Part shown: one piece after another, positions 3,137-32,734 of the stretch | Layout of the letters: every line of letters begins with the position of its first letter | Numbering within the stretch: position 1 is the first letter of the stretch | NCBI GenBank assembly: GCA_965231015.1 | Contig: OZ246408.1 | Coordinates: forward strand, 793,908 to 857,907 | Reading direction: 5' to 3' | Source: an uncultured Gammaproteobacteria bacterium | Lineage (GTDB): Bacteria; Patescibacteriota; Patescibacteriia; UBA9934; CAZDDW01 | DNA: 64,000 nt | The notes under the pieces: generated by a model | What the model saw: the letters and a program-made list of their open reading frames with translations, nothing else | Database searches by the model: none | What the model was told of the DNA's origin: nothing | Made by a program: the position numbers and the translations under genes

Positions 3137-3212
3137 GGACCGGTAGTGAAGCGGTTAACACGTCGCCCTGTCACGGCGAAGATCGCGGGTTCGAATCCCG
3201 TCCGGTCCGCCA
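3137..3212 (+). tRNA. tRNA-Asp (GTC)
   Basis: Acceptor GGACCGG/CCGGTCC, anticodon loop CTGTCAC, T-loop TTCGAAT, encoded CCA. Confidence 0.9.
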
Positions 3213-3301: not shown

Positions 3302-3880
3302 ATGTCAGAAGAAATACAGAAGGTTCCAGAAGAAGCCTTAATGTCTAAACAAGAAGGCACGGAATCAACTCTACCGGAGGACCAAATCGAACGAGGAGGA
3401 GCAAATGATAATGTTCGGAAAATCAGTCCGGAAATGGTAGCCAAGGCTAAACAAGAAGGCTTGGCCGTCGAAAAAGGTAAAACCTCTGATCCCGTTTCCA
3501 AACGAGAAGCACTAAGTGGAGACAAGGACTGGTCCAAAGAAAACGTTGAAATCGGGGCTGATGTTCGGGCGGCGGCCATGGAACTGGCTGCGGAAAGCGA
3601 ATCCTCAGCTGATCTTCGAACCTCAACGATTGATGCCCTGATGAACCAGACAGTAACTTTTGAAGTTAGTGACGGGCTCGGTGCAAAGGGGAAAATACTA
3701 TCTCGTAACGAAGATGGTTCACAGGTAACAATCCGAGTAACCACCAAAAAATCCTGGATGCCGTGGAAAAAAGATGAGATTCAAGACCACACCGTTAGTC
3801 CAGATCAAATCCAGAGCTTTGATGAAATGATGAAACAGAATCAAGCAATTCAAGAAACGGGAACCCAGTCAACCGGCTAA
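3302..3880 (+). CDS. Hypothetical acidic protein (192 aa)
   Basis: Intact ORF; the ORF-track start at 3146 overlaps tRNA-Asp and is rejected, first ATG after the tRNA terminator used; followed by a terminator. Confidence 0.55.
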   Translation: MSEEIQKVPEEALMSKQEGTESTLPEDQIERGGANDNVRKISPEMVAKAKQEGLAVEKGKTSDPVSKREALSGDKDWSKENVEIGADVRAAAMELAAESESSADLRTSTIDALMNQTVTFEVSDGLGAKGKILSRNEDGSQVTIRVTTKKSWMPWKKDEIQDHTVSPDQIQSFDEMMKQNQAIQETGTQSTG

Positions 3881-3894
3881 GTTATCATGATAAC

Positions 3895-3925
3895 AAAACC
3901 CCGGGCATGTGCTCGGGGTTTTTGG
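3895..3925 (+). terminator. Rho-independent terminator (CCCCGGGC-atgt-GCTCGGGG-TTTTT)
   Basis: 8-bp stem with one G.U pair, T5 tract. Confidence 0.6.
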
Positions 3926-3978: not shown

Positions 3979-4008
3979 ATACCCCTTATTCGTACGAATA
4001 AGGGGTAT
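3979..4008. repeat. Perfect 30-bp palindrome ATACCCCTTATTCGT/ACGAATAAGGGGTAT; a member of a recurring palindromic element family (see also 9966..10030, 33834..33870, 52155..52200)
   Basis: Exact reverse-complement symmetry read directly from the sequence; shares TACCCC/GGGGTA arms and a TTCGTAC/GAA core with the other copies. Confidence 0.8.
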
Positions 4009-4041: not shown

Positions 4042-4419
4042 TCACTCGGATCCGGCAGCGGTATCGGAAGTAGAGAAGGTATCGATTCCCATCTCGGCCA
4101 TGACTTCCTCGACCTTGATGGCCACTTCTTCGGTGAGCGGGGCGTGATCGTCCTTGATACGGCTCATGTGCTCGGGACTGATACCGATCTTGTCGACCAG
4201 ATCTTTATCCGAGCAACCACGGTCCTGTCCCTGCTTGATGAAGGCGAGCACAGTGGTAAAATCGGAAAACATTAGAGTGTGAACAGCAGATAAAACCGAG
4301 AGTGACTCCACTCTCACTTCCCCTTTCACGTACCGCATCATGTCCTCAAGCATCATCATCAACTTGGTTGGATTGGCTTCATCATCAGCGAGCACCAGAC
4401 GCAACTTGAGCTTGCTCAT
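4042..4419 (-). CDS. Hypothetical protein (125 aa) with a C-terminal HTH-like segment (DLVDKIGISPEHMSRI)
   Basis: Intact ORF in a GC-rich patch; ATGA overlap with the upstream small ORF. Confidence 0.5.
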   Translation of the reverse strand: MSKLKLRLVLADDEANPTKLMMMLEDMMRYVKGEVRVESLSVLSAVHTLMFSDFTTVLAFIKQGQDRGCSDKDLVDKIGISPEHMSRIKDDHAPLTEEVAIKVEEVMAEMGIDTFSTSDTAAGSE

Positions 4420-4613
4420 CGAGCTAATCGTCGCTCTTCTGATTCGAACGCGGCACCCAGATGGACGGGCCGCGAGCCGCCACGACTGCTTAAGCTCATG
4501 ACACCGGGATCATAATAGTTCGAACTCGTACCATTGTCGCCCCAGGTGAACACCCAGTACAGCACCGCGACGATTTCGCAGTAGATCAAGTACGTGATTG
4601 CAAGTGGAATCAT
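4416..4613 (-). CDS. Small predicted membrane protein (65 aa, MIPLAITYLIYCEIVAVLYWVF...)
   Basis: ATG overlapping the stop of the upstream 39-aa ORF (ATGA coupling); one hydrophobic helix. Confidence 0.4.
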   Translation of the reverse strand: MIPLAITYLIYCEIVAVLYWVFTWGDNGTSSNYYDPGVMSLSSRGGSRPVHLGAAFESEERRLAR

Positions 4614-4729
4614 GTGACAATCCGAAACTGTGCCCCAGCCAGAGGCAAGGTGATCCACATCATCACACCGGCCGCACCCATGATGGCGGCCACGATAGCG
4701 ATTCGGGTCAAACTTTTGTGTTTGCTCAC
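4610..4729 (-). CDS. Small hydrophobic peptide (39 aa, MSKHKSLTRIAIVAAIMGAAGVMMWITLPLAGAQFRIVT), GTG start
   Basis: Strong SD GGAGGAG placed 8 nt upstream of the GTG; a TM helix; a different frame from the 106-aa track ORF, which has no RBS spacing. Confidence 0.4.
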   Translation of the reverse strand: MSKHKSLTRIAIVAAIMGAAGVMMWITLPLAGAQFRIVT

Positions 4730-4796
4730 GGTTCACTCCTCCTCTTGGTCAAAGCCAAGACTCGAGGTTTCCCGATTTTTAACTTCTCGTCAACCC

Positions 4797-6176
4797 CTAG
4801 ATTTCAAGGCTTCCATAATGGATCACGAGATAGACTTTATAATTATTTCCGTTTGGTTCAAAGTACATGCCCGTACCGACGGTGTTCCAATCTTCGTGAT
4901 AAATTGAGCGGTAGTGGGCACCGTTGTAACCCTCTTCGGCGAGCATCCAATCAATGGTTTGATCCATCATATCTTTGACCGATTCGGTGGTTCCGGAAAC
5001 ATAATTCCACGAAATATTCTCGGTAAAGTAATTTTCGTTCCATCCATCGGCTGAATACCGCTCGGTCCAATCATAATCCCACTCTTCGATCCACTCGTGC
5101 ATGCTAGAGCCGTCCGGGCGAGTGTGTGTGGAATATCCAACCTCTTCTCCTTCATAGCCGGCCCAATCCGTGGCCGAGTCAATAAAACGTTGATCAAGCA
5201 CCAGCTCGCGAAGTCCTGCTGCCGTGCGCAAATCATTAATCTCATCCAACCAGTACTCGTTTACTTCCATCAAATCAACTCCACTTGGCACCTCTCCGCG
5301 CTGGTACGAACTAATTGTTAGCTCACTACTCGAGCTCGAGCTGGCCGATGAGGCCGTGGTCGAACTTGTAGTTTCATATTCAATATAAACGTCTTCCATG
5401 TCTCCTTCATCAATGGCTGATAAATCTGCATCTGTAATTCCAAGACTCAGGTAGCGCATGATGCTGTAGGCGGCATCTCCGTCACGCATATAAATGCGGC
5501 GGCAAATATCCGGATCAACATACCAGGCTTCACCATGTTGTTCGACTTGGAGCAAGATCTTTCCTTTGAGCCGATCGGCCAGATCATTGCTCGAACAAAT
5601 ACTAGACGATCTATCCATCTCATCCGTATCATCTACTTCCGGAATATCATCAAGGTCAGCGTCAGTAATCCCAAGCCCAAAGGAACGCATCATTTCATAC
5701 GCAGTTGGGCCGTCTTTCATGTAATAACGTAATTTGTCTTCTGGATTCACGTACCAAGCCTCACCGTTTTGCTCAGTCTGTAGCAAGATGTAGCCAACGG
5801 TGCGATCAGTAATGCTTGAAGTATCATAAAGAGTTGGCACTGGATCTTCTTCCTCTGGTTCATCCACTTCGGTAATAGCAGCGTCGGTAAGACTCATTAA
5901 GGCCGATCCGGTCCAACCCTCTACTCCATTCGGCGTAATCACTCGGTACCAACCATCGGTCTCTCCATTGATCTGCACTACAGTTCCGGCAGCCACAGTT
6001 TCGAGCACAGTTGTCCCGTCAACACACGGGTTATCGCGCACAAAAGCGGCAATATCATAAATGCCGTGCCAATCACGCTCATATATCGGATCCTCATAAC
6101 AGGCAAAAGCTAAAACTTGTTGCCCTATCAACATAGAACCGAGCAACATTATTAAACCGATCATCAATTTGTTCAT
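4797..6176 (-). CDS. Secreted protein: signal peptide, SH3b-like segment, two ~63-aa internal tandem repeats, C-terminal CAP/SCP (YkwD-like) domain
   Basis: N-terminal MNKLMIGLIMLLGSMLIGQQVLA; duplicated LLQ(T/V)EQ(N/H)GEAWYV(N/D)P...GLGITDADL repeat; CAP-like HYRSIYHEDWNTVGTG C-terminus. Confidence 0.7.
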   Translation of the reverse strand: MNKLMIGLIMLLGSMLIGQQVLAFACYEDPIYERDWHGIYDIAAFVRDNPCVDGTTVLETVAAGTVVQINGETDGWYRVITPNGVEGWTGSALMSLTDAAITEVDEPEEEDPVPTLYDTSSITDRTVGYILLQTEQNGEAWYVNPEDKLRYYMKDGPTAYEMMRSFGLGITDADLDDIPEVDDTDEMDRSSSICSSNDLADRLKGKILLQVEQHGEAWYVDPDICRRIYMRDGDAAYSIMRYLSLGITDADLSAIDEGDMEDVYIEYETTSSTTASSASSSSSSELTISSYQRGEVPSGVDLMEVNEYWLDEINDLRTAAGLRELVLDQRFIDSATDWAGYEGEEVGYSTHTRPDGSSMHEWIEEWDYDWTERYSADGWNENYFTENISWNYVSGTTESVKDMMDQTIDWMLAEEGYNGAHYRSIYHEDWNTVGTGMYFEPNGNNYKVYLVIHYGSLEI

Positions 6177-6221: not shown

Positions 6222-6875
6222 ATGAGCAAACCTGGAGGAAAACGGTATAAAAGGACACCGCTCGAGAAAATAAATGGACCTACTCCACAGCTTAAGCCGG
6301 TGGACATTATTTTGGTTCATCATAAACAAAGTTTGTTTCGTTTTTTTCTGCGCATGGTCACGGATTCTTACTGGGATCATGCCGCGCTGGTGATGTACCC
6401 CCGCAGTTCTAAAAACGAAATGCTCTACTCGGTAATTGTTGAGTCAATCCGGCCGGGGTTAGCCGGGCTGGTTGGCTCACGTGGTGTAGCTTTGCACCGA
6501 CTTGATAAATATTTCAACGAACCTCACCGATACGACGTGGGAATTGTCCGGGTTGAAGGTTTATCAAAAGAAGAGCGTGAGGAGGTTCGTTTGTTTATGC
6601 TAACCAATGTTGATGCCCCATACTGGCCGTGGCACTATATTGAAATCCTTCTTGCGGCCATGCTTCCACCTCTACGCTACTGGATTTTGCGTCGACAAAG
6701 ATTTAGCTGTTCTAGCTTGATTCAAAAAGCTTTCTTTGATGCATTGGGTGATAAATACAAATCACGTGTTGTTTTTAAAGAAGGGGTTTGGTCCCCAATT
6801 GAACTAGAAGAGCTGACAAGCCCGGGTGATATTGCTCGCAGTAAAAACATTAAATGGATCTACAATAAACATTAG
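6222..6875 (+). CDS. Putative permuted papain-like (YiiX/NlpC-P60-like, His-then-Cys order) hydrolase, paralog 1
   Basis: Conserved SYWDHAALV ... FSCSSLIQKAF pattern; paralogous to the next gene. Confidence 0.5.
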   Translation: MSKPGGKRYKRTPLEKINGPTPQLKPVDIILVHHKQSLFRFFLRMVTDSYWDHAALVMYPRSSKNEMLYSVIVESIRPGLAGLVGSRGVALHRLDKYFNEPHRYDVGIVRVEGLSKEEREEVRLFMLTNVDAPYWPWHYIEILLAAMLPPLRYWILRRQRFSCSSLIQKAFFDALGDKYKSRVVFKEGVWSPIELEELTSPGDIARSKNIKWIYNKH

Positions 6876-20811: not shown

Positions 20812-23800
20812 TTAGAACGGACAGTAATTCATTTCAATATTTGTTAGATTCACGGTTCCCGTGCCTGGGAAACTAATTCTAAACGGCACAGTAAACTCTT
20901 CGTCTGATTCCGGACACTCGAAACCGATTGGGAATAGCAACGGCTGACTATTCCCTTCGTTCATAGTTCCGCTTGAAGTTCCGGCATCAGTGGTATAAGT
21001 GATATGTTTTCCAATAATGGATTCCACAATAGCCTCGTACATATCACGTAAATCTTCGGCGGTTTCACTTGAATAAGCATATTCGATTCCATTGTTTGAA
21101 GGTGAACAATTATCCGCATCAGAAATATCATCCGGTTCATCTCCTGAACAAACATCCGGCATAATTCCGGCTCGTTCACAAACATCACTCGACCAGTGGG
21201 CCATATAACCCTTAAGACTGCTTGATCCGGTCAGGGCAGCAGTATACAAATCCAAAGTTCCGGTTTGCCCCTCACAATCGCGTTTCAAACGCCGAGCCCA
21301 TTCGTCTACCGTGTTTTCACCATCTCCGGCTGTCGGGCTACCATCACTTAATAATACCACCACCTGAACCGTGTCTTCCGGAGCCGGATTTTCCAGCTCA
21401 TTATAAACCGCCTCCAGACCCTCTTCCGGGTAAGTGCTTCCGGATGCGCTGTAAGCATTTACTGTATTGATAAGTGAATATTCATCTTCAGAGGTAGACA
21501 AATTATAATCGATATTACCGGTACCAGGGCTACTAAAGCTAGCTAATCCAATTTCAATGGTTCCATCTTCAAAGGAATCAAACAGTTCTCCAATAGCATC
21601 AATGGTCGCTTCTTTAGCAACATCGAGCCTAGAATCTGAACCATCGAGTAATTCATTCATACTGGTTGACAAATCCATAATAAAGAACACTTGAACGTAT
21701 GGTGGAGTGACTCCAGCGAATGACACATCTGCAGTTAAACTGGATCCAACCCGACAGGCTGGGAAGTACATTAAAGCGGTGTCAGGTGAATCACCGGAGC
21801 CGAAACTATACAGGTCAACTGAATCTGTTTTTAGTGAACCCTCTTCTTCGGCCTCAACCTGGACGGACACACTGGAGAGTGAAAACGGACAACCGGACGA
21901 ACAGTTATCATTACACTCAGGAGCTACACAGGTACCAAGAGAAGTGGTCGGGGGAAACGAGAACGGATTCTGTCCACAATTATCATCGTAGTCGGCAATT
22001 CCAGCGTTGACATCACACGGAACTCCGTTGAAATCTTTTAACTCATCATCAATTGTTCTGTACCCACCATTACAATAACCGGCCGGAGCACACTCGTATA
22101 CTTTATCAGCTATTCCATCCCCATCGTCATCACACAAATCATTGTTATCACACAAATCCTGACAATCTAGAAAACTGTCACAGGCGCCGGAAATATCTCG
22201 CCGGTCAGGGTCTTCATCTTTTAAAATACAATAATTGATTGGCATATCCGTGCCATCACAAAACTCACTTCCGTTAACCTGATCGTCACCACAGTAACCA
22301 CCGCTCATGGTTTGGTACTGACAACTGGCCGTACAGTAGTTACAGCTTCCGCCGTACGGCGCTTCACACGGCACGGCGTTCCCGGCACCCCAGTCACAGG
22401 CTTCAATTCCATCATAACGCTTACCGTCTCCACAAACATTAAACAAGCAGGAAGTAGTGCACTCATCATTGTTATCATCATTTCCATCATCACACTCCTC
22501 TGTTCCTTCTGTTACCCCGTTTCCACAATACCCAGTTCCAATACAGCTCTCACCACCAATTTCGTCCCAACCACCCACAAAATGGCTTGAGTCAGCCTCT
22601 GGCCAAAAACAACCTGTACCAGCAGCGATGTCAGAGTCACACACACGGGTACGCATAGTTTCAAATTCAAAAGTTGAGCATGTGCCATTGGCACATTCTC
22701 CGTCCGTCTGACACGGCTTACCAATTTCGTCTCCGGTATCACACAACTGTGAAGATTCACAGGCTTCATAACCACTGACATTACCACACGTTCCACCCTC
22801 ACAATCATCATCAATTTCACATGGCTCTCCCTCAAGTGACCCTGACGAACAAATCGCGCCGTCCCAAGTCTCTGACTCACCATCACACTCTTCTGATCCG
22901 TTTACTACTCCATCGCCACAGCTTGGTGGATCTCCGGCACAATTAAAGGCACAGCCCTCATCTGGGTCGTATGAATAAATTCCGTTTACGTACTGACAAC
23001 TATTGGCCACGGCCCAAGCACCACTCGTACGAAAATCTTCGTTGTAACCACAGTCACACACTTCACTTCCGGCCAAAGTTCCGTCTCCACAAAAAATTGC
23101 TCCATCAACGTCACAGTCGAGTCCACAATATCCGTACTGACCATTGAAAGCTCCATCATCACACTCTTCTCCATCATCAACAACTCCGTTTCCACAAAGG
23201 TATGGAGTACAAGACGAAGCAGAGTCAGCCGCTTCTTGATATGCGGAACAGTCTGCACTACCACTTACAGCACAGTTTCCACTGTAACAACAAGTGACGG
23301 TTTTTTGACCTTCTATATATGTACAGGTTCCTCCTCCGCAATCAATTGAGTCATTACACGGGTCACCGTTTGAACAAACCCCACTGGCACACTCACCATC
23401 TGCTCCACAGGTGGCAACTACGTCTCCGGCCGGATCACAAACGGTTCCATAATAACTTGATTCAACATCATTAAAACAGATATATACTTCACCCGGATCA
23501 CAATCCACGGTTTGTGTGTCTCCAATTTCACAGGTCTCATTTTCACCCACCACTCCATCGCCACACTCTTCGGAAAGACCAAGTTCGGTTCCATCACAGA
23601 AAAGAGAAGTAGTAAATCCATCCGGATTAGATTCAGACGCATTACCAACGGTAATTTCAGCCCAATCTGTGGTGTCCTGGTCTAGATCATAAGCCCAAGG
23701 AGCGCCATTATATTCTAAATCAACAAACAACTCGTAAGCTTCCCCGGCTATGGAGCGGAAGCCATAGACATGTGAGCCTTCATTGCAAACAAACTGCGAA

Positions 23801-26800
23801 GCGTCCCCGTTCCAACAACTGGTTTCATCATAGCCCTCCGGACAATCGGCTAAATTATTAAGTGGGTCCGTTGGCAAAGCGGCACCCAAATTATTTCCCA
23901 GCTGAGCCTGCCAACTTGGCCAAGCACTATAACTGCGGGAACGTAAAAAACTTCCCACTTGCAATTCCGGTACGGTCTGCACACAAGTTTCACCCCCCGG
24001 ACAGTTATCGTCCACAAAACAGGCCATGGTTTTTGTCACTGAACAACGGCTATTGGTGCTACCGTAGGTATCAATCTGTCCGTACATGCTGCGCAAATCT
24101 GACAAGCGTATAGTGTCACGCTGCAACATTTGTTTTTGTGCTCCACAAACCGCATCGGCTCCGTACTCAAAACACTCGGCGTCATAACTACATTCAGCTA
24201 ACTGTAAACCGTCCGTAGCATTATCAGTATCGATCGGGTTTGCGTAGGCGTCGGTTTCATAACAAAACTCATCATCAAGCAAAACATCATTGGCATTGAA
24301 TGCCCAGCTATCAAGCACTTGCTCAAACACTTCCAAAGTTTCATCCTCTGCCCCTTCATTGTAGGCAATGGCATAAATATTAGAGTAAATGTCCCCGGTC
24401 TGATTGGCCGCATTAACATAAACCGTACGACCGTCCTGAACCGCTTCGTAACCATCCACATCATCGGTTGAAGAATAAGATCCGTCAAAGTTGGCATCGT
24501 ACCAATCACCTGGCGAGTAATAATCCTCGTTGCCAGCAATCCTGACACCAACCGCATCGGTGTAATCATCCCCATCAATCATAAACAGTAACTCACGGAA
24601 TACTCCGGAAGTGGTTTGTGGATTTGGTGCCTCGACCACCCTCATGTTTGGTAGATCATCGCTCGTATCAGCCGCGTCTCCGGCGTCCCGACAATAATAG
24701 AAAGAGAAATTAGAATATGGGAACGGACTGCCAAGATCGGTTCGTACGGACGGACCAAAATCTCCAAGCCCCAGACCCTCAAAGGCGGTATCATATTCTT
24801 CAGTATCAGAAAAAGGGAACGTGCCCACTTGTGGCCATGGATTTTCACACAAGAAGACCATCTCTTCAACCGAACCACTGATTACCTCTCCGGTAGTGCT
24901 TGGATCGTTAAACGAGTCGGATGTCACTGTAGCAGAAGCCACAATATCCTCTTCACCGTTTTTAGATTCAGCAACCGCGTCATTGAGGTCAGTTGTCGCG
25001 GCCGGGTCAGATAAATTTAAAACTGATCCATCTCCGGTTATACCCCAGCTCCAGGTCCAATCATAATAACCGGCAATTGGCGTAATTTCTTCCCGAACGT
25101 TATTACGGATTGTATATGCCGCAGCTTCGAGGTCATGACTTTCAGCCGCTTCAGTAAAGAGTCCTGGACTTGAAGACTTGTCTTCCACTAACACGTCTTC
25201 AAGCTCACAAACCTCAGTTCCGGTCTTGAAACTTGAAGCTAAAAGTTGATTTGCCTCAAAACCATAAAGAGCGTCAGTGATAGTCGGTCGGATAGTGATG
25301 CCGTACTGTGTGGTTACTCCAATGTTGTAAGCAGCCTCGGTATTATCATCCTGCAAATCCTGATCACCTACCACCACCAACCGGTACAAAGAATTCTCTT
25401 CAAGTGGTTGTGAGTAGGTAAAAGTGACCTCGGTACTGCTTTCAGATAAATCATTAGACAGGGTGCCCTCCATGTAACAGACAACGGGATCCTGGGCATA
25501 CACCTCGCGACCGAACAAGCCAGCCACCTTATTAGCCACAAAACGCCAAGCCCGGACGTACCACGGACGATCACCTTCATGTAAAGCAACCAAACTTTCT
25601 TCATAACCGGACGGACAATCACCGGTTTCAAGATCAGCGTCAGGCTGTGCTTCACCGTCCACCAACACTCCTGAACCAAGATAAATTAAGAAAATGTTGT
25701 CCACGGTTTCATTACCAACCTGGACGCGGAAAGACTCAGTATCCATTAAGGAATCAAACTCAGCACTAACCGAGGCGTTACGACACACGTCTTCCCGAGC
25801 ATCTGGAGCAAAAGTGGCGGTTGGTCGATCAGCACAACAACCACCAAAACCACAACCGATCGTAGTATAAGTCGCGACGCCACAATCAAGATCTTCCTCA
25901 CAAGAACAATTGACACCAACTTCAGCTTCTCCGGTAGCTCCGGTGCCGGTTTGACTGTCCGTTCCTTCAGCTCGCAGATCCGTCATGATTGGATTTTCAT
26001 CCAAGACAACCGACGCTTCGATCGCCCCCTCAGATATTTCAGCCACCTGGAACGGATCAATTAAACCGTCCCCGCCGGCCAAAGCGGCTTCACATTCTTC
26101 ACCTGTTCCATAATTGCCATCACCACAAAAAGATGGAGTTGAGTATTCGTGATTTGATCCCTCAAAAAGACCGTCATCAGAACAACCTTCATCAGCTGGA
26201 TCACACTCACCGCTCTCATTCAAACACCGCGAACTGCAACCATCTCCATTCGTTCCATTTCCATCATCACAGTCTTCCCCGTCCTCCCGAGTGCCGTTAC
26301 CACAGACAGCTGTAATTTCGGTTGCATCAAGCGAACCCTCATTTAAACAAATATTGGAACAACCGTCTCCGGAACTATTATTTCCATCATCACACTCCTC
26401 ACCCCCTATAGCATCATTGTGCAAAATAATTCCGTCTCCACAAACTGTGCCAGCGTAACCTGAACCCTCGTTTGTACAAACACTGGAACATCCGTCTAAA
26501 TCATCATTGTTGCCGTCATCACATTCTTCAAAACCATCCATTGATCCGTTTCCGCAAGTTCCGCCATCAGCCACAGCGGCAGTTCCCTCGGTCGTACAGG
26601 TAGCACTACAACCGTCTCCGTCCAGTGGTAAACCAGGGCCGTCATCACAGTCTTCACCAAATTCTTCTACTCCGTTACCGCAAACCGATACTCCGTAATC
26701 ACTTCCCTCGTTCAAACAAAGGCTGGAACATCCGTCCGGAAGTTCACGAGTGGTATCAAGGTTTGCTGGGGTAAAGAAAGCAATCTCGTAATTGTCTGGA

Positions 26801-29800
26801 ACCGTATTATCAATCTCCCAGTTCCAAGCATAGTCATACGCGTCAAGCCGTTGACCGGATGGTGAACACTCGTCCGGTCCGCCGTAAGCAGTGGCTTCGT
26901 AGGCTTGTTGAGCCCCGATTCGATCCAATACTTCACGTTCAGGATTTACTTCAACACGTTCAATACCACACGGAGCAGAATCGGCTTTAGTTTTAAAAAT
27001 CCACTCTTCATCTCCGGAAAGCCCGGTACCACTAAGACTCAACACCCCTTCTACCTGATCAGTTGTTGATGGATCATCACCGGAAATCCGCACCAAATAG
27101 TAAGTATCTTCTTCCAAATCACTTGGCGGACTCAAAGAGATTGACCAATCCCCGGCGTTGTAATTCAGTGTTCCGCCCACCACTTCCGTAGTTCCCAAAT
27201 TACAAAGCGCGTCGGAACACTCATACAGCCGAACATTGCCGTTGAAGCTGGACGAATCCATATCCAAATTAAAGGTCGCGCCAACCACAGCGTTGACACA
27301 AGCCTCTTCACACTCAGGCCATCGGTCTTCTACCCGAGGATCTTCAAAATTGACCTGAATGTCAGAGCTATCTCGTAAATTTTCATCCGTGATCTCGGCA
27401 GTGAGCTCAACCACATGACCGGGTTCAGTTTCAGATTCTGCCTCAACATTATAGGTATCAAAATCAAGCGAGACTAAATCAATAATGTCATCCCAGTCAG
27501 TGTTACCTGTATGCTCAGCATACCAGGTCCACACATCTCCCGGGGTATACAACACCTGACATCCTCCGGCTCCGATTGCGGAAGCATCAAAGTCGCTGTT
27601 TTCTTCAACGAAGGTGTAACTCTTTTCCGGAGGCAACAATAGCACACTCTCTATTTCACAGTCTGAGGTATCAGTCCTGGTCTGAAACTGCCACTCGTAA
27701 TCCGTTTCTAAGGGTTCTCCATCAGGACTTGTAATGCCTCCGATTCCACCAACGAGCGTCACCTGGTACCAAGTACTTGGATCAAAGACGGTACCGGCCG
27801 GCGATGAAATCCACTGGAAAGTGGTGTCAAACTTATCATCAAATTCTCCGTCAACAGTTTCTAAATCAGAACAAGGATCATCCGGATCCAGCCCGACACA
27901 TTTTTCTACAATGACGGTGCTCGTGGTGATACTTGCAAGCTCCACTCCGGGATCAGTTTCAAAAGAACCCTGCACCATTGAATTTACACAAACTTCCTCA
28001 CCGTTCGGCCAGGCTGTGTATGGCGTTGGGCTAATCCAATCATCAGAACATTCAACAATGAGTTGTGGAGCGTCCGGAATTTCTCCGGTAGAAAAACGCC
28101 AAAGGTATTCTGATTCCGGGATAGTTTCACTTGGACAAGTGGCTCGACACGCTCCATCATCACAACAAGTTTCACCTTGTGCGCACTCCGCTCCCCCATC
28201 AAGACAACTAGCCACTTCAAAATTAATCGTGTTTGAGGCAGTACCACCATTATCATAAAGTGTGACCGGTCCGGTGGTAGCTCCGGAAGGCACTTCTACT
28301 CGAACCTGTTCGCCATCACCTCCCCAATAATCAATGTTGGTTACGGCTACCCCATCATAAAAATCAACCGAGCCCTGCACGCTTCCAAACCGTTCACCAT
28401 AAAGATCAACCAACAGGCCCTCCGGACCGTTAGTCGGATCAATGGCACAAATGCTTGGCCCCGGACTGCCACTTGTTACCGTAAACTCGGCCTCATTACT
28501 TTCAGCACCATCATCACGCTCAATCCAAATTGCGGCTGAGCCTCCATCAGCCCATTCCGGTACCTTCATTATAATATTGTCATCCGCCCACCAATTGCTG
28601 GCACAGGCGTCTGGAAAATCAACATCAGCAACATCTGTTGCTCCGGTGGAATCCCTAAACCAAACAATGCCACCCGGCGGATCGTCGTCAAAATTTTCTC
28701 CGTAAATTGTTACGTATTGTCCAATAGGTCCGGTGTCTCCATAGTCTTCACAGGCACCAAAATTACATGGCGTATCATCACCTATTGTACAACCGGTCAC
28801 TGTTGGATCATTGGAACAATAATTTGGTACGTCCAAAGTACAGGTTCCAGCACAATCACTGTCAGCACTACAAGCTAAATCCGTGTTGTCGGCACAATAA
28901 TCAAGACCGGAATCAACATAACTGATGACCGGAGTCTCTTGTTCCGTCTCTGAGCTAACCGTAAACTGAACCGTGTTTGAACCATTCCCTTCTACAAAAA
29001 CCTGAACCTGATAATTACGAGCTGATACTTGAGGAACCGGGAAGCTAATACTTTCATCATTCCAATTTTGATACTCACTTGGTTCGTATCCGGTATTTCC
29101 GTAAAGAAGGTAAAGATTGTCCTCGGTCGTACCGAAATTTTTACCCGTGGCTACCACAATATCGTCCGGCAAACCACTTTCCGGATTAACGTCACACATA
29201 CTTGGTCGCACAGTACCATCTTCCGTGAAATCAATAATGACTGGGCCACGGTCATAATCATCGGTTCGGTCAGACAAAGGACCGTCAGCTTCAGCCGGCT
29301 CAGTCACAATTATGATCGGCCCGTCAACAAACCCGTTTGGTACCTCTACCACCACCTGAGTGCTGGTCCACGGATCAGCACAGTCAGCCACTAATGCCTG
29401 TACGTCATCATCATCTCCTTCTTCATCACCGTCCCCGTCCGTATCCGCTCCTAAAAACCAAACTTCTCCTTCTGCGTCATTAAAATATTCTCCTGAAATT
29501 GTAATGTAGTTTCCTGAGGTACCCTGGGTTGGTGAAACATAAGTTATTTCCGGATACCCAACACAAGTTCCCTCCTCACAAATTCCACTGGCACAATCAC
29601 CGTTTTCCGTACAAGATTCACCATCACAAGATAGACAATCATCTCCACCACAATCTACTCCGCTTTCGTCTTCGTCCTGCACACCGTTGGTACAGTGAGC
29701 AACCAAAGCGCTCACTGTAATGGAATCCGATAAAGTAGAGCGGCCGGAACAGTCATAGGCACGCGTACTCAAATTGTGTGAACCAAGAGAGGGCTCCGTC

Positions 29801-30798
29801 CAGTTGGCACTGTAGAGATCTGGCTCGCCAAGATTCAAAACCACTCCGTTGTCTTCAAATGAACTGTCAACGTAAAACTTAACCCGGTTGATTCCACCGT
29901 CGTCTGTGGCAATTGATTGCATAAGTGCCAGTTCTCCTACCGGAACTGAACCCCCATCATCCGGGTACGTCATCTCAACGGATGGGTCAGAGGTATCAAT
30001 TAAGTCCCCGGTGGTAAAAGTTGATTGACAGTCTTCACCCGGTGAACCACAGGTAATTAGCTCGCCACCGGTTTCTTTTAGACCGGCTCCGATTTGAACC
30101 GTGTAAGTAGTATTGGCATCAAAACAAAATTCAGCAGGGTCTTCCGGACAAACCGCTGACGGGGTAAACATAACCTCATCATCTTCAGTGTCAAAAGTTC
30201 CATCCACCGGATCACCAAGCGGATCCTGAATCTGGATGTTGCTGGCAATCGTAGAGGTGTCAACAGAATTATTAAATAAAATAGTGACCACTACATTTTT
30301 ATTTGGTAGATCACCGGTAGCACAACCATAACTCTCAATAATAAATTCATCATAAATCGGTGGGTTATCACCCGGATCCCAAGGGTCATCCCCCTCCTCC
30401 CCGGTTCCGGTGCCACCACCTACCGCGTCTACTAAAGAAGAAATAACAAATGTGGTAATGGCCCAGGCAGACATGATGATAACCATGCCAATTACAGCAT
30501 TCACCAACACCTTTTTAGCTTTACTGATTTTTTCCGCCTGACCACCTGAAGTCATCCACAAAAATCCGCCATAAATAATTAGGCCAAGCAAAACCACGCC
30601 GGCAAAACTGAGAGCGGTACGGATGAGTCGCGCCACTACAACCCGAATGTCAGCCTGAGCGAACCCGGCCTGTTCGGCAAACTGCTGAAACGCTGTTTCA
30701 TCAACCGGACCTTGAGCCAAGGCCTCGGTTCCAACAACCAAACCAAAGAGCGTAAGCCCGATGATCATGATCCAATAATTTTGGCGGATATATTTCAT
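20812..30798 (-). CDS. Giant (3328 aa) cell-surface protein: N-terminal pilin-like hydrophobic domain, Ig-like/IPT-TIG domains, myxococcus-type Cys-rich repeats (CGNG..ECDDGN), C-terminal von Willebrand factor A domain
   Basis: Uninterrupted 9987-nt ORF; IPT-like [22 protein letters not shown]; at least 4 CxxGxxExGExCDDGN repeats; vWA MIDAS DLSTSM...LLSDGSPT. Confidence 0.85.
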
Positions 30799-30799
30799 T

Positions 30800-32734
30800 T
30801 TATTCAGGTATTACACTACAGTCCCCTCCTCGACTTACCTCAGCGTCGCCACGACAACAACTCGGACTTGAGCTATCCACGTTACAATCCGGAGGAATCA
30901 CATCTTGAGCAGGATTAGCACTGCCCGGTCCATGCGCTGGGTAATAACAAATCTGGTACGAGCTTTTAATTCCGTGACTCAACCATGGTTCATAGTACCA
31001 AGTCAGCGTGTCAGTTGATTCTAAGAACAAGCCGTGGTCAATCACAACACGAGTGGCAGTTGGTTCAGCATCAGCCTGCGGTGGAGTTTCAGAATATCCC
31101 TCGTACAAGTTTTCCTTTTCAATTCGGTATGACAATTCATGGGTCGTAAAGTCACTTGATACCGGAACCAATCCAATGTTGTTGCTGTTCAAACTAGAAC
31201 TCATGAGCGTGACACCCGGCCCGGGTGGAGATACCCCGTCATCCTCAATAAACGTGGCAGATATTTCTGCGTCCAGTTCTACTTCTTCAGCCTCAAGATC
31301 AGGTCGCAATTCATAAATCGACGGGATCACATCATTGACTTCGTTCGTAGTTTCAAAGGCCCAAACATAGTTGTCCGTGGTTGGTCCATCAGCTGTACCG
31401 TCCAGGTTGGTAGAGGCTCCAACGTCCGGATTGTGGTTATTGTTTCCTCCATCAAGAGAATTGCCGGTCACATCCACCGCACCATCGTACGGATAGCCCA
31501 CAGCTTCCGGGGCACTATCCCCGACTGTCGCCGCAGTTACCGTAGTGTTGATCACAGACTCGCCCGGCAAACAGTAAATAGTGTCGCCACACGGATCCTC
31601 AGCACAAGCATCATCTGAAACAAACTCGATTGTCCGATATCCGTTCGAAATCGTCCAAGTTCCGGTCACGGTTCCTGAATTAAACGGATCCTGAAATTCA
31701 GCCAAAACATTTGAAAAGAAACTGTCTACGCCGTTATAGGTGCCGCTCACGGCAGTCGGATCCATAGCCTCGTTAAAATTGATCTGAATCACCACGTTGC
31801 GGTCTTTTTCTGTAGCGTGTCCAGGATAAACACTCTGCACGTATGGAGGCTCCAGATCAACCTCTGTCGAAACTTCAAAGGTCCATTCATAACCACCGTT
31901 AAAATTACCACTAAAAGCCTCGGTGCCATCTTCTTTTAAGATACCGTCCTGCAAACTAACCGTGTAGTTCATCGAATCAATCGCACTACCAAGGAGCTCA
32001 ACCGGATCAAAAACCCAGCTTAGATTATCTGCGGTTCGGTTCACAAGCACAGCTTCACTTGTTAAAGCCGATCCCTCCCCTTCGGAATTTGGATAAATTA
32101 AAACTAAACCATCGTTTAAAAAGTACGTATCATCAGTTTCGTCACCCGGAGTTCCGTTGTCGGAATATACACCATTGGTTAGTGAATCTAAGTTAATAGG
32201 TTCTTTAAAAGTGATGATTACCTTAGTGTTCCGTGGGATGTCATTGGCATTGCGTAGTGGCCAATGGTCTTGAATGATTCCCGCACCAAGCGGACCGGAA
32301 AGCGGTTCCACCCCGACCGGTGGTTCTGAACCAAACCCGCCAAAAATTCCTCCTTGACCGAGTAAGGCATTGAGAATAAATGAAACTATGCTATACGAAG
32401 CAAGTACAATAAAAGCGCCAATCACAGCATTGCGCATGATGAGCTTGGCCTTCTTGACCTTTTCAGCGTCTCCGGCTGAAGTCATCCAAAGGTAACCCGC
32501 GTACACAATGAGAGATAAAAATATTATGCCAATCAGACCGATGGCATAACGAATAATAATGGCCACAACCACACGAATATCAGTTTCAGGAAGACCGGCC
32601 GCTTGTCCAACCATTTCAAGTTGATCCTCTTGAGCCATGGCTTCCGGAGCAAAATAAAACAATAATCCCGCCACCACTACGACAAGGGTGGCGATGCAAT
32701 ATGTTCGCCATCTATTTTGCACTGCTTCAAGCAT
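30800..32734 (-). CDS. 644-aa surface protein sharing the pilin-like N-terminal domain with the giant protein, Ig-like beta-rich body, Cys-rich C-terminus containing RGD
   Basis: N-terminus DIRVVVAxIIRxAI...YxGxLWMTSxGxxEKxKKAK alignable to the giant protein; 1-nt spacing to the giant gene. Confidence 0.8.
   Translation of the reverse strand: MLEAVQNRWRTYCIATLVVVVAGLLFYFAPEAMAQEDQLEMVGQAAGLPETDIRVVVAIIIRYAIGLIGIIFLSLIVYAGYLWMTSAGDAEKVKKAKLIMRNAVIGAFIVLASYSIVSFILNALLGQGGIFGGFGSEPPVGVEPLSGPLGAGIIQDHWPLRNANDIPRNTKVIITFKEPINLDSLTNGVYSDNGTPGDETDDTYFLNDGLVLIYPNSEGEGSALTSEAVLVNRTADNLSWVFDPVELLGSAIDSMNYTVSLQDGILKEDGTEAFSGNFNGGYEWTFEVSTEVDLEPPYVQSVYPGHATEKDRNVVIQINFNEAMDPTAVSGTYNGVDSFFSNVLAEFQDPFNSGTVTGTWTISNGYRTIEFVSDDACAEDPCGDTIYCLPGESVINTTVTAATVGDSAPEAVGYPYDGAVDVTGNSLDGGNNNHNPDVGASTNLDGTADGPTTDNYVWAFETTNEVNDVIPSIYELRPDLEAEEVELDAEISATFIEDDGVSPPGPGVTLMSSSLNSNNIGLVPVSSDFTTHELSYRIEKENLYEGYSETPPQADAEPTATRVVIDHGLFLESTDTLTWYYEPWLSHGIKSSYQICYYPAHGPGSANPAQDVIPPDCNVDSSSPSCCRGDAEVSRGGDCSVIPE

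Follow-up and report, generated by a model that had tools for sequence, protein, structure and literature searches.

Small regulators of the XRE/Cro-C1 type (HTH_3, PF01381), such as SinR, ClgR, the C-proteins of restriction-modification systems and HigA, share a four- to five-helix fold. In HigBA and MqsRA, the toxin gene comes first and is followed by that of an XRE antitoxin extended at its N-terminus. Bacterial upstream ORFs (uORFs) that act via translational coupling have been documented, for instance in Sinorhizobium (PMC13285730). Such ORFs hold the only good Shine-Dalgarno (SD) sequence and overlap the start of the main ORF. The locus analysed here, in a 64-kb stretch of DNA (the window) from the genome of a tiny uncultured bacterium of the Patescibacteria, forms the end of a conserved pair of genes, a CAP/SH3 gene followed by a small XRE-type regulator gene, and it bears some likeness to each of these systems. 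The XRE fold recurs in the C-terminal half of the 125-aa regulator; unlike in those regulators, the helix-turn-helix (HTH) is C-terminal here, behind a domain of about 55 residues without detectable relatives. With HigBA and MqsRA the locus shares the gene order, the stop/start overlap, a small XRE protein with an N-terminal segment and a patchy occurrence among close relatives. However, its upstream products are hydrophobic peptides and not RelE-fold nucleases, the family thresholds of HigA and MqsA are not reached, the N-terminal domain of the regulator has no zinc-binding Cys motif, and the regulator occurs alone in two other lineages. No gene for a RelE/HigB-fold toxin was found adjacent to the regulator with Pfam, NCBIfam or PADLOC (E<=1).

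The likeness to the Sinorhizobium uORFs lies in the translational layout, with an upstream ORF that has its own ribosome-binding site (GGAGGAG, 6 nt, GTG) and ATGA overlaps at 4613-4610 and 4419-4416, such that synthesis of the main ORF would likewise be expected to need upstream translation. The difference is that two serial ORFs are present, of 39 and 65 aa and thus long enough for membrane proteins, and that a single lineage-specific block parts a pre-existing SD from its gene. The 39-aa product also recalls type I toxins (Hok, Fst, TisB, BsrG) in its length, its one hydrophobic helix and its charged ends, but sequence similarity to them is absent, and its ORF is the first cistron of a protein-coding operon, not a tightly repressed monocistron. 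Signs of an antisense RNA were also lacking, with no Rfam match and with promoter-like sites on the opposite strand at the shuffle expectation, the sole one (4235-4262) lying within the HTH gene. As to receptors of RRNPP peptides (Phr, AimP, PapR, SHP), the regulator has no TPR match, and its 125 aa leave no room for one.

The cluster comprises three ORFs on the minus strand, encoding 39 aa (4729..4610), 65 aa (4613..4416) and 125 aa (4419..4042). At the first of the two ATGA junctions, the ATG at 4613-4611 overlaps the TGA at 4612-4610; at the second, the ATG at 4419-4417 overlaps the TGA at 4418-4416. This chain, with its GTG start and its GGAGGAG motif, had been described in an earlier note on this DNA and is read directly in the sequence. 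The raised GC content stated there also holds, at 53.4% for positions 4042-4736 against 45.1% for the whole window, which is the 99th percentile among windows of equal size; three equally GC-rich patches lie elsewhere in the window (at about 33.1, 50.1-50.5 and 51.8-52.1 kb). GC is similar in the three ORFs. The co-directional upstream neighbour (4797..6176, minus strand) encodes a secreted protein of 459 aa with SH3 and CAP domains (Pfam CAP, 1.7e-9; SH3_3, 1.9e-7), and is a conserved partner, found directly upstream of the HTH gene in the relatives L001 and L002 too and 70% identical to the L001 copy. Standard gene callers leave a 377-bp 'intergenic' gap at this place, which probably holds two genes. 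A reading of TGA as a sense codon, as seen in some candidate phyla, was rejected: ORFs of table 11 tile the window, one of them 3332 aa long, and TGA is the stop of 11 of the 54 such ORFs of at least 150 codons in the window.

The regulator (4042..4419, minus strand, ATG start) combines the N-terminal domain, of no known fold, with an XRE/Cro-C1-type HTH at about residues 55-110. Against Pfam, the window's regulator reaches only 17.6 bits for HTH_26 (cut-off 22) and has no HTH_3 match, while its ortholog P0002 (67% identical) matches HTH_3 with 30 bits (cut-off 23) over residues 66-106; altogether, two of the three members of the family match HTH_3. AlphaFold predicts helices at 52-66, 71-78, 82-91 and 97-110 with pLDDT of 70-83, and the model, compared with Foldseek, displays the four- to five-helix HTH bundle. 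The top matches in the PDB are C.Esp1396I, SinR, ClgR, HigA, HipB and lambda repressor, with probabilities of 0.9-0.99 at E of about 0.07-0.3 (best 0.067; none E<=0.001). The ortholog match, the predicted helices and the structural matches bear out the HTH-like C-terminus that had been proposed. The best NCBIfam match is HigA (TIGR02607), below its equivalog cut-off of 47.7 bits (19.7 bits for P0001 and 23.5 for P0002). The family comprises only 3 clusters among 5.8 billion proteins, and the dN/dS of 0.17 relative to L001 indicates purifying selection, so that translation of the regulator must be maintained. The 125-aa product is an ordinary XRE-type HTH regulator of a very small family.

Comparison with the relatives reveals where this species departs from them. 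In L001, a same-genus-like relative with neighbouring proteins 79-89% identical to those of the window, the regulator likewise follows the CAP/SH3 gene, at the corresponding position, and its GC is equally raised. In both L001 and L002, an identical CCAAGAGGAGGAG is followed by ATCG and then by the regulator ATG, the small ORFs being absent. The distant third homologue L084 (39-42% identity) has AGGAG, 7 nt and ATG directly before the regulator, again with the peptides absent. In the window, 316 nt (4420..4735, minus strand; GC 55%) take the place of the 4 nt of the relative, a net difference of 312 nt. This segment sits exactly between the ancestral SD of the regulator and its ATG, is wholly filled by the two small ORFs, and occurs in this species only, among the homologous loci found. 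Because the alignment shows it to be absent from the closest known relative, the small ORFs form a lineage-specific, compositionally atypical piece. Since L084 also lacks the peptides, gain in this lineage is favoured over loss in the relative; we consider it somewhat the more probable of the two, the direction of the indel being polarised by a single distant outgroup on a 665-bp contig. A profile search gave this one further distant homologue, and when the regulator alignment was run against GTDB genomes and JGI metagenomes, no more relatives emerged. With the CAP protein as the query, a genome scan yielded only distant Patescibacteria loci that have a repeat domain in common with it, the regulator and the segment being absent from all of them.

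The SD itself (GGAGGAG, 4736..4742, minus strand) serves the 39-aa ORF here, 6 nt before its GTG at 4729, and serves the regulator gene in the relatives. It adjoins a conserved 60-nt leader (4737..4796, minus strand) that extends from the CAP gene to the first small ORF and includes a TTGACG at 4793..4788; a canonical sigma-70 promoter was looked for in this leader and none was called. L001 shares two blocks with it letter for letter, CCTCGAGTCTTGGCTTT (17 nt) and CCAAGAGGAGGAG (13 nt), while the synonymous sites of the adjacent gene differ by 59%. In the two species, the dG of a hairpin at 4767..4738, whose 3' arm pairs with the GAGG at 4741..4738 within the SD, comes to -12.4 and -13.4 kcal/mol (z of about -0.9, alone not significant). 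Upstream of the regulator ATG, only AGAAGAG is now found, 14 nt distant.

No second copy of the segment was found within the window or in 83 fetched loci, and neither terminal inverted repeats at its ends nor other repeats were found. TGAGCAA occurs at both junctions (13 nt, 2 mismatches), a likeness reached by 91 of 500 shuffles and thus not significant. A MITE or IS remnant was rejected on these grounds. No match to plasmids or phages was accepted in blastn and tblastn searches with the segment and the peptides (sole tblastn match, E=0.9), and in JGI metagenomes and IMG/VR, scans with back-translated DNA were likewise without a match. A structured RNA or riboswitch was likewise rejected, with no Rfam match at E<=1 and a fold z-score of -1.08.

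Small ORF 1 (4610..4729, minus strand; MSKHKSLTRIAIVAAIMGAAGVMMWITLPLAGAQFRIVT) encodes a product in which a basic N-terminus precedes a single hydrophobic helix; the TGA that ends this ORF overlaps the next ATG. Small ORF 2 (4416..4613, minus strand; MIPLAITYLIYCEIVAVLYWVFTWGDNG...EERRLAR) begins at that ATG, which lies within a longer 106-aa frame, and encodes an N-terminal hydrophobic helix followed by a polar Arg-rich tail; its own TGA overlaps the regulator ATG. The hydrophobic character ascribed to both products in the earlier note is supported by their maximal Kyte-Doolittle 19-residue windows of 2.24 and 1.97, reached by 3 and 29 of 5000 dinucleotide shuffles (p=6e-4 and 6e-3, respectively). 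GC per codon position is 0.50/0.50/0.65 in the 39-aa ORF, and GC peaks at position 3 in both proposed frames (0.65 and 0.61), the HTH gene showing the same pattern (0.65). Under the codon usage of the window, these two frames obtain the best scores; the usage of the 65-aa ORF is not native-like (-10.3 bits). About 6.5% of shuffles contain a chain of two ORFs that connects an SD-linked GTG with the HTH ATG, which makes the chain only suggestive. An overlapping start codon results whenever A, G or T precedes a TGA stop.

Database searches returned no relatives of the peptides. The 39-aa ORF has no homologue in 5.8 billion clustered proteins, JGI metagenomes or IMG/VR, and the products of 39, 65 and 106 aa have no match in Pfam, NCBIfam or PADLOC at E<=1. 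A concatenated query of 39+65 aa found nothing among the 5.8 billion proteins, itself included; since the peptide sequences are thus absent from this set, no pipeline has ever called these ORFs. The sole match to the 65-aa ORF in a full HMMER search of 1.84 billion representatives (P0004) was rejected as an artefact of a five-fold repeat that shares a 'FTWG.NGTS' motif. All available copies are 100% identical, which makes a dN/dS or conservation test of the peptides impossible.

Besides the 39-aa and 125-aa ORFs, the listing of ORFs gives a merged ORF of 106 aa with a GTG at 4736 (4416..4736, minus strand). That this is one real protein is highly improbable, even though 110 codons of the frame are open (p=0.015 for 104 codons or more). 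The GTG falls on the SD itself, with zero spacing, which leaves the start without usable spacing. For the 41 additional residues at the N-terminus, AlphaFold predicts no structure (pLDDT 46-58), and they have no homologue and no Pfam match. In codon usage, these residues score worse than the overlapping 39-aa frame, which leads by 9 bits (+4.1 versus -4.9). Given a real 65-aa ORF, about 45 further open codons would also be unremarkable (estimated at about 0.13). The sole confident element of the 106-aa AlphaFold model is a helix at 42-65, which corresponds to residues 1-24 of the 65-aa ORF and begins at its Met (block means of pLDDT 75-92). The SD spacing, the codon score and the model agree with the earlier call of 39 and 65 aa, and no sign emerged that the 106-aa ORF is a single conserved protein.

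Our preferred reading, to which we give about an even chance, is that the segment encodes two single-pass membrane micro-proteins, specific to this lineage, which take over the old SD of the regulator and hand the ribosomes on. Ribosomes would load at this SD, begin the 39-aa peptide at the GTG that follows 6 nt later, terminate at the TGA that overlaps the 65-aa ATG, and terminate a second time at the TGA that overlaps the regulator ATG. The regulator would then be made by termination-reinitiation, in a translational relay on which it would depend since it now has no SD of its own. On the other hand, an SD-like motif is carried by only 18 of the 48 long ORFs in the window, so translation of the regulator could need neither an SD nor coupling. 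The peptides would be co-expressed with the regulator and possibly under its control. Our leading guess is that they may be a membrane-active or immunity-type pair governed by the XRE protein; roles as toxins, bacteriocins or signals are guesses as well. If the peptides are real, the locus would be a clean natural example of new micro-protein genes entering a streamlined genome, in which an orphan segment borrows an existing ribosome-binding site and the old gene is kept alive via stop-start overlaps. We regard it as a neat but unproven case of small-gene gain and not as a recognisable toxin or bacteriocin system, and nothing points to a new mechanism beyond small-gene gain.

The segment could instead be incidental DNA, captured from a foreign source or left as a decaying remnant, with functionless peptides and ORFs that are untranslated or, as pure uORFs or spacer, tolerated only for passing ribosomes along to the regulator. 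We consider this unlikely, while giving it some weight: the segment is wholly orphan and neither of the other two homologous loci has it, the codon usage of the 65-aa ORF is non-native, the chain statistic is only p of about 0.065, and pipelines on record call no gene at the segment. Against it, two independent, strongly hydrophobic helices with flanking charges would be improbable in random DNA of such composition, GC3 is enriched in frame, and the ancestral SD is ideally spaced from the start codon, so that at least the first ORF should be translated. A further possibility is one ancestral membrane-hairpin gene of about 104 aa with two helices, which a frameshift of 1 nt where the ATGA now lies (4613-4610) would have broken into a fresh pseudogene or split gene. 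Merely about 10 residues separate the two helices, and a single restored base (ACA TGN ATT) would put them in one frame. This explanation nevertheless seems a long shot, for an ATG is unlikely to land exactly on a stop by accident, ATGA is the commonest gene-overlap motif in bacteria, and the concatenated query found no unsplit homologue of about 104 aa among the 5.8 billion proteins. We give very little credence to the 39-aa product as a secreted signalling pro-peptide (Phr/AimP/SHP-like) that would be cut after A-G-A to release QFRIVT for sensing by the HTH regulator. Read by eye, the product shows a hydrophobic core preceded by a basic n-region (K3, K5, R9), an AXA at 31-33 and a 6-residue C-terminal remainder, and an HTH regulator adjoins the ORF, but a core of about 21 residues suits a membrane anchor equally, the regulator has no TPR or other peptide-binding domain, and it occurs without the peptide in two other lineages.

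The earlier note had suggested a horizontally acquired small-peptide module next to tRNA-Asp, possibly a membrane-peptide toxin or bacteriocin-like system with a regulator. In the fullest form of this reading, the upstream peptides would be the toxin, the HigA-like XRE protein would be both antitoxin and repressor, and the relative would keep only an orphan antitoxin. The gene order recalls HigBA and MqsRA, where an N-terminally extended XRE antitoxin follows the toxin, the best NCBIfam match is HigA, losing a toxin while keeping its antitoxin is the viable decay route, and the three ORFs are alike in GC. Conserved Xre-membrane protein pairs have also been noted as possible unexplored toxin-antitoxin systems, but the same authors left them out because no type II membrane toxin was known then (PMC2701414). 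The module has only a small chance of being correct, as the HigA scores stay below 47.7 bits, neither peptide matches a toxin, bacteriocin or defence family in Pfam, NCBIfam, PHROGs or PADLOC, the outgroup L084 also lacks the peptides, and in the relative the regulator shares its synteny with a neighbourhood of housekeeping-like character. The toxin or bacteriocin identity is thereby left without a family match for either peptide. A tRNA-linked island was rejected: the search for a repeat of the tRNA 3' end gave only a 13-nt match at chance level (26871-26883, within the 3332-aa ORF, E=0.05). The placement next to the tRNA was loose, 830 nt and a 192-aa ORF (3302-3880) separating tRNA-Asp (3137-3212) from the cluster. 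In L001, whose tRNA side is unassembled, the regulator and the CAP-side genes are syntenic and only the 312-nt segment is absent. The three genes therefore do not form one acquired block. The small-ORF segment is lineage-specific and atypical, and the regulator is the only part that relatives carry with matching composition; being syntenic, equally GC-rich and under purifying selection, it is not part of a fresh tRNA-linked island. Similarly improbable is a recently assembled, type II-style system in which a toxin, or a toxin and a helper, would act in the membrane and be neutralised or repressed by the HigA-like protein. A toxin cassette would then have been inserted between the ribosome-binding site and the start codon of an existing regulator, a position that would lock the synthesis of toxin and antidote stoichiometrically through two ATGA reinitiation steps.

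The palindrome reported to flank the cluster is present at 3979..4008, 34 nt past the regulator stop and between convergent genes, as a perfect 15+15 repeat of 30 bp that occurs once in the window. It has no T-run behind it, and a separate terminator (3895-3922) belongs to the convergent 192-aa ORF. The palindrome is probably a terminator-type hairpin and not the end of a mobile element.

Three minus-strand ORFs in the 4042-4736 patch are chained by ATGA at both junctions, as the earlier note described and as the sequence and the ORF listing confirm. The first, of 39 aa (4729..4610), starts, also as proposed, with GTG behind a GGAGGAG Shine-Dalgarno (SD) motif, which lies at 4742..4736 with a spacing of 6 nt; the second, of 65 aa, starts at ATG 4613, and the third, of 125 aa (4419..4042, ATG start), encodes the regulator. 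A single-frame reading merges the small ORFs into one of 106 aa (4736..4416, minus strand), which includes the 65-aa frame. Its GTG start overlaps the GGAGGAG and therefore has no usable SD spacing. The patch is indeed GC-rich (53.4% versus 45.1% for the window, 99th percentile of equal-sized windows), and three other patches in the window equal it. These lie at about 33.05-33.9 kb, 50.1-51.1 kb and 51.75-52.8 kb (at least 52% in 695-nt windows), the latter two flanking HAD-like hydrolase genes and a tRNA-Met/Leu/Met cluster (52.3-52.7 kb).

The tRNA-Asp (3137-3212), previously described as adjoining the cluster, is 830 nt away with a convergent ORF in between, so that "next to" is loose wording, and we consider the tRNA irrelevant. 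The intervening acidic 192-aa ORF (3302-3880, plus strand) has a good terminator of its own (3895-3922); it has no Pfam, NCBIfam or PADLOC match and only weak PHROGs matches (E 0.016-0.054). The flanking palindrome at 3979-4008 is real, with perfect 15+15 nt arms (ATACCCCTTATTCGT/ACGAATAAGGGGTAT), and is single-copy in the window. It lies between the convergent regulator gene and 192-aa ORF, has no T-run, and is replaced by a different sequence at the equivalent place in the relative.

The 125-aa protein belongs to a family of only three clusters among 5.8 billion proteins: its own (P0001), a 67% identical ortholog (P0002) and a distant homologue (P0005, 39-42% identical). P0002 passes the Pfam HTH_3 cut-off (30 bits versus 23, residues 66-106); the window's protein has only a sub-threshold HTH_26 match in Pfam, and its best NCBIfam match, HigA, is far under the cut-off. 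AlphaFold, run on a two-sequence alignment (mean pLDDT 60), predicts four helices within residues 52-110 (pLDDT 70-83) and resolves no fold for the first 50 residues. Foldseek against the PDB retrieves the XRE proteins C.Esp1396I, SinR, ClgR, HigA, HipB and lambda repressor, which bears out the HTH-like C-terminus noticed earlier. Comparison with the ortholog gives a dN/dS of 0.17 at a dS of about 1.15. The gene product is a genuine XRE-type regulator under constraint, whose N-terminal domain matches nothing named.

P0002 is encoded on two Logan contigs of a relative, L001 and L002, both of which stop at the same base about 156 nt past the regulator gene. L001 is collinear with the window through a carotenoid-synthesis-like gene, a 477-aa ORF, two Peptidase_C92 genes, the CAP/SH3 gene and the regulator, with proteins 70-89% identical, which shows that the regulator did not arrive recently. 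The distance from the CAP stop to the regulator ATG is 68 nt in L001 and L002 versus 377 nt in the window. In the alignment, the two sequences run together as far as CCAAGAGGAGGAG, after which the relative has ATCG and then the regulator ATG, while the window has 316 nt (net 312 nt). This segment (4420..4735, minus strand) contains both small ORFs and is located exactly between the ancestral SD of the regulator and its start codon; if inserted, its placement precisely between a ribosome-binding site and the corresponding start codon is the notable detail. The third homologue lies on a 665-bp ENA contig (L084, ERZ24794656), where the small ORFs have no room before the regulator: AGGAG, 7 nt and ATG are found immediately 5' of the aligned start, with a promoter-like TTGACT-17-TAATGT about 60 nt upstream. 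As called, this regulator carries a 19-residue N-terminal extension, the aligned start being an internal ATG at 120; because of the AGGAG 7 nt upstream of this ATG, the gene as deposited probably extends too far in the 5' direction.

Since two of the three lineages, outgroup included, lack the segment, the sequence comparison favours gain by the window's lineage. A shared origin with the regulator gene and later deletion in the relative is nonetheless a serious alternative: the outgroup is distant, its genomic context is not visible on the contig, and the segment (55% GC, in-frame GC3 0.61-0.65) resembles the regulator gene (52%, GC3 0.65) and not the genome (GC3 0.43 ± 0.07). The regulator gene of L001 has 51% GC and a GC3 of 0.60, versus 45% GC overall. 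A TGAGCAA microhomology at the junction is not significant and is compatible with insertion or deletion alike. The idea of an acquired module is favoured for the small ORFs, carried by a lineage-specific, compositionally atypical segment that L001, L002 and L084 lack, and falls for the regulator, which these contigs carry and which L001 synteny places at the site ancestrally.

Neither the window nor the 83 loci that were fetched contain a second copy of the segment, and its ends carry no terminal inverted repeats. Rfam gave no match to it at E<=1, its RNA folding is not unusual (z = -1.08), and no similarity was detected in plasmids, phages, IMG/VR or JGI metagenomes. The concatenated small peptides matched nothing among 5.8 billion proteins, not even themselves, which agrees with L003 and L004, identical contigs on which no gene was called in this gap. 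A full HMMER search of 1.84 billion representatives with the 65-aa ORF gave a single match, dropped as a five-fold repetitive junk ORF.

TGA is a sense codon in some candidate phyla and is the stop of all three cluster ORFs, so the genetic code was checked. The window is tiled by table 11 ORFs, and TGA ends 11 of the 54 that have at least 150 codons, which rules out its reading as sense; the standard code applies. Every available copy of the small ORFs is identical, and the coding evidence consists of intrinsic signals. The strongest is hydrophobicity: each ORF encodes one strongly hydrophobic stretch with charged residues on either side, the best 19-residue Kyte-Doolittle windows (2.24 for the 39-aa and 1.97 for the 65-aa ORF) being reached by 3 and 29 of 5000 dinucleotide-preserving shuffles, respectively. 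Like the regulator gene, the small ORFs read in the proposed frames have their GC maximum at codon position 3. A codon-usage model trained on 31 genes of the window ranks the proposed frame first among same-strand frames for all three ORFs and puts the 39-aa frame 9 bits ahead of the 106-aa frame that overlaps it. The 65-aa ORF has a negative score (-10 bits), so that it does not look native. A two-ORF overlapping chain from an SD-linked GTG to the regulator ATG arises in about 6.5% of shuffles and is less striking than it looks, because a TGA preceded by A, G or T always creates an overlapping start. For the 106-aa reading, AlphaFold gives a single confident element, a helix at residues 42-65 starting at the methionine of the 65-aa ORF, and no structure for the 41 residues that only the merged ORF has. 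Combined, these signals clearly favour 39 + 65 aa over the 106-aa reading, in keeping with the earlier doubts about the merged frame, and tip the balance towards real membrane peptides.

It is now the 39-aa ORF that sits behind the ancestral SD. The gene of the regulator is intact and under purifying selection; it has no SD in the normal range, the nearest being AGAAGAG 14 nt upstream. After loading at 4729, ribosomes would terminate and restart first at 4613 and then at 4419, a two-step relay that would yield the regulator alongside two single-pass membrane peptides. Bacteria are known to couple the translation of main ORFs to that of upstream ORFs (PMC13285730). Translation of the regulator may also start at its ATG independently of an SD, as SD-like motifs precede only 18 of the 48 long ORFs in the window. 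The leader (4737-4796, minus strand; L001 5932-6000) is well kept, with 17-nt and 13-nt blocks identical to L001, whereas 59% of synonymous sites differ in the adjacent gene. It contains a CTCGAG palindrome, and its blocks could fold into a hairpin (4767..4738), no more stable than shuffles, in which the GAGG (4741..4738) of the SD is covered by the 3' arm. The leader may be an operator bound by the regulator or a translational control site.

Sequence searches give the small peptides no name. A toxin-antitoxin module is attractive, the gene order resembling HigBA and MqsRA with the XRE protein as antidote, and the state of the relative would be explained if it had lost the toxin and kept the antitoxin. 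However, the regulator misses the HigA threshold, there is no RelE-fold partner, and the outgroup also lacks the peptides; moreover, pairs of an Xre and a membrane protein were left out by Makarova et al., to whom no type II system with a membrane toxin was known (PMC2701414). The toxin or bacteriocin-like identity proposed earlier is not borne out. An n-region, an h-region and an AXA pattern, discerned by eye only, would fit a signalling pro-peptide for the 39-aa product, but the regulator has no peptide-binding domain. A frameshifted two-helix protein is possible, although no unsplit homologue was found. Ahead of these three readings, the peptides are most likely lineage-specific membrane micro-proteins co-translated with the regulator. 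The cluster is a new, orphan example of a well-known arrangement, in which an XRE regulator is preceded by small ORFs with putative translational coupling to it.

The tandem Peptidase_C92 (permuted papain-like amidase) genes (6222-6875 and 6826/6877-7515, plus strand) adjoin the gene of the secreted SH3/CAP protein (4797..6176, minus strand), and may form with it a cell-wall-acting group controlled by the XRE regulator. The relative has all three as well, at 88-89% identity for the amidases and 70% for the CAP/SH3 protein. When GTDB genomes were scanned with the latter, most of the records obtained belonged to Patescibacteria (candidate phyla radiation), and some were labelled Gammaproteobacteria or plain "bacterium". 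Ordinary small-genome genes nearby encode pyruvate kinase, FtsA, an HtrA-like protease, topoisomerase I, YbeY and diacylglycerol kinase. A 3332-aa ORF (20812-30810, minus strand) with a T4SS-pilin-like N-terminus, Ig-like/TIG domains and a C-terminal VWA domain is a giant surface protein typical of Patescibacteria; it lies immediately downstream, on the same strand, of a 644-aa ORF (30800-32734) with the same pilin-like N-terminus.
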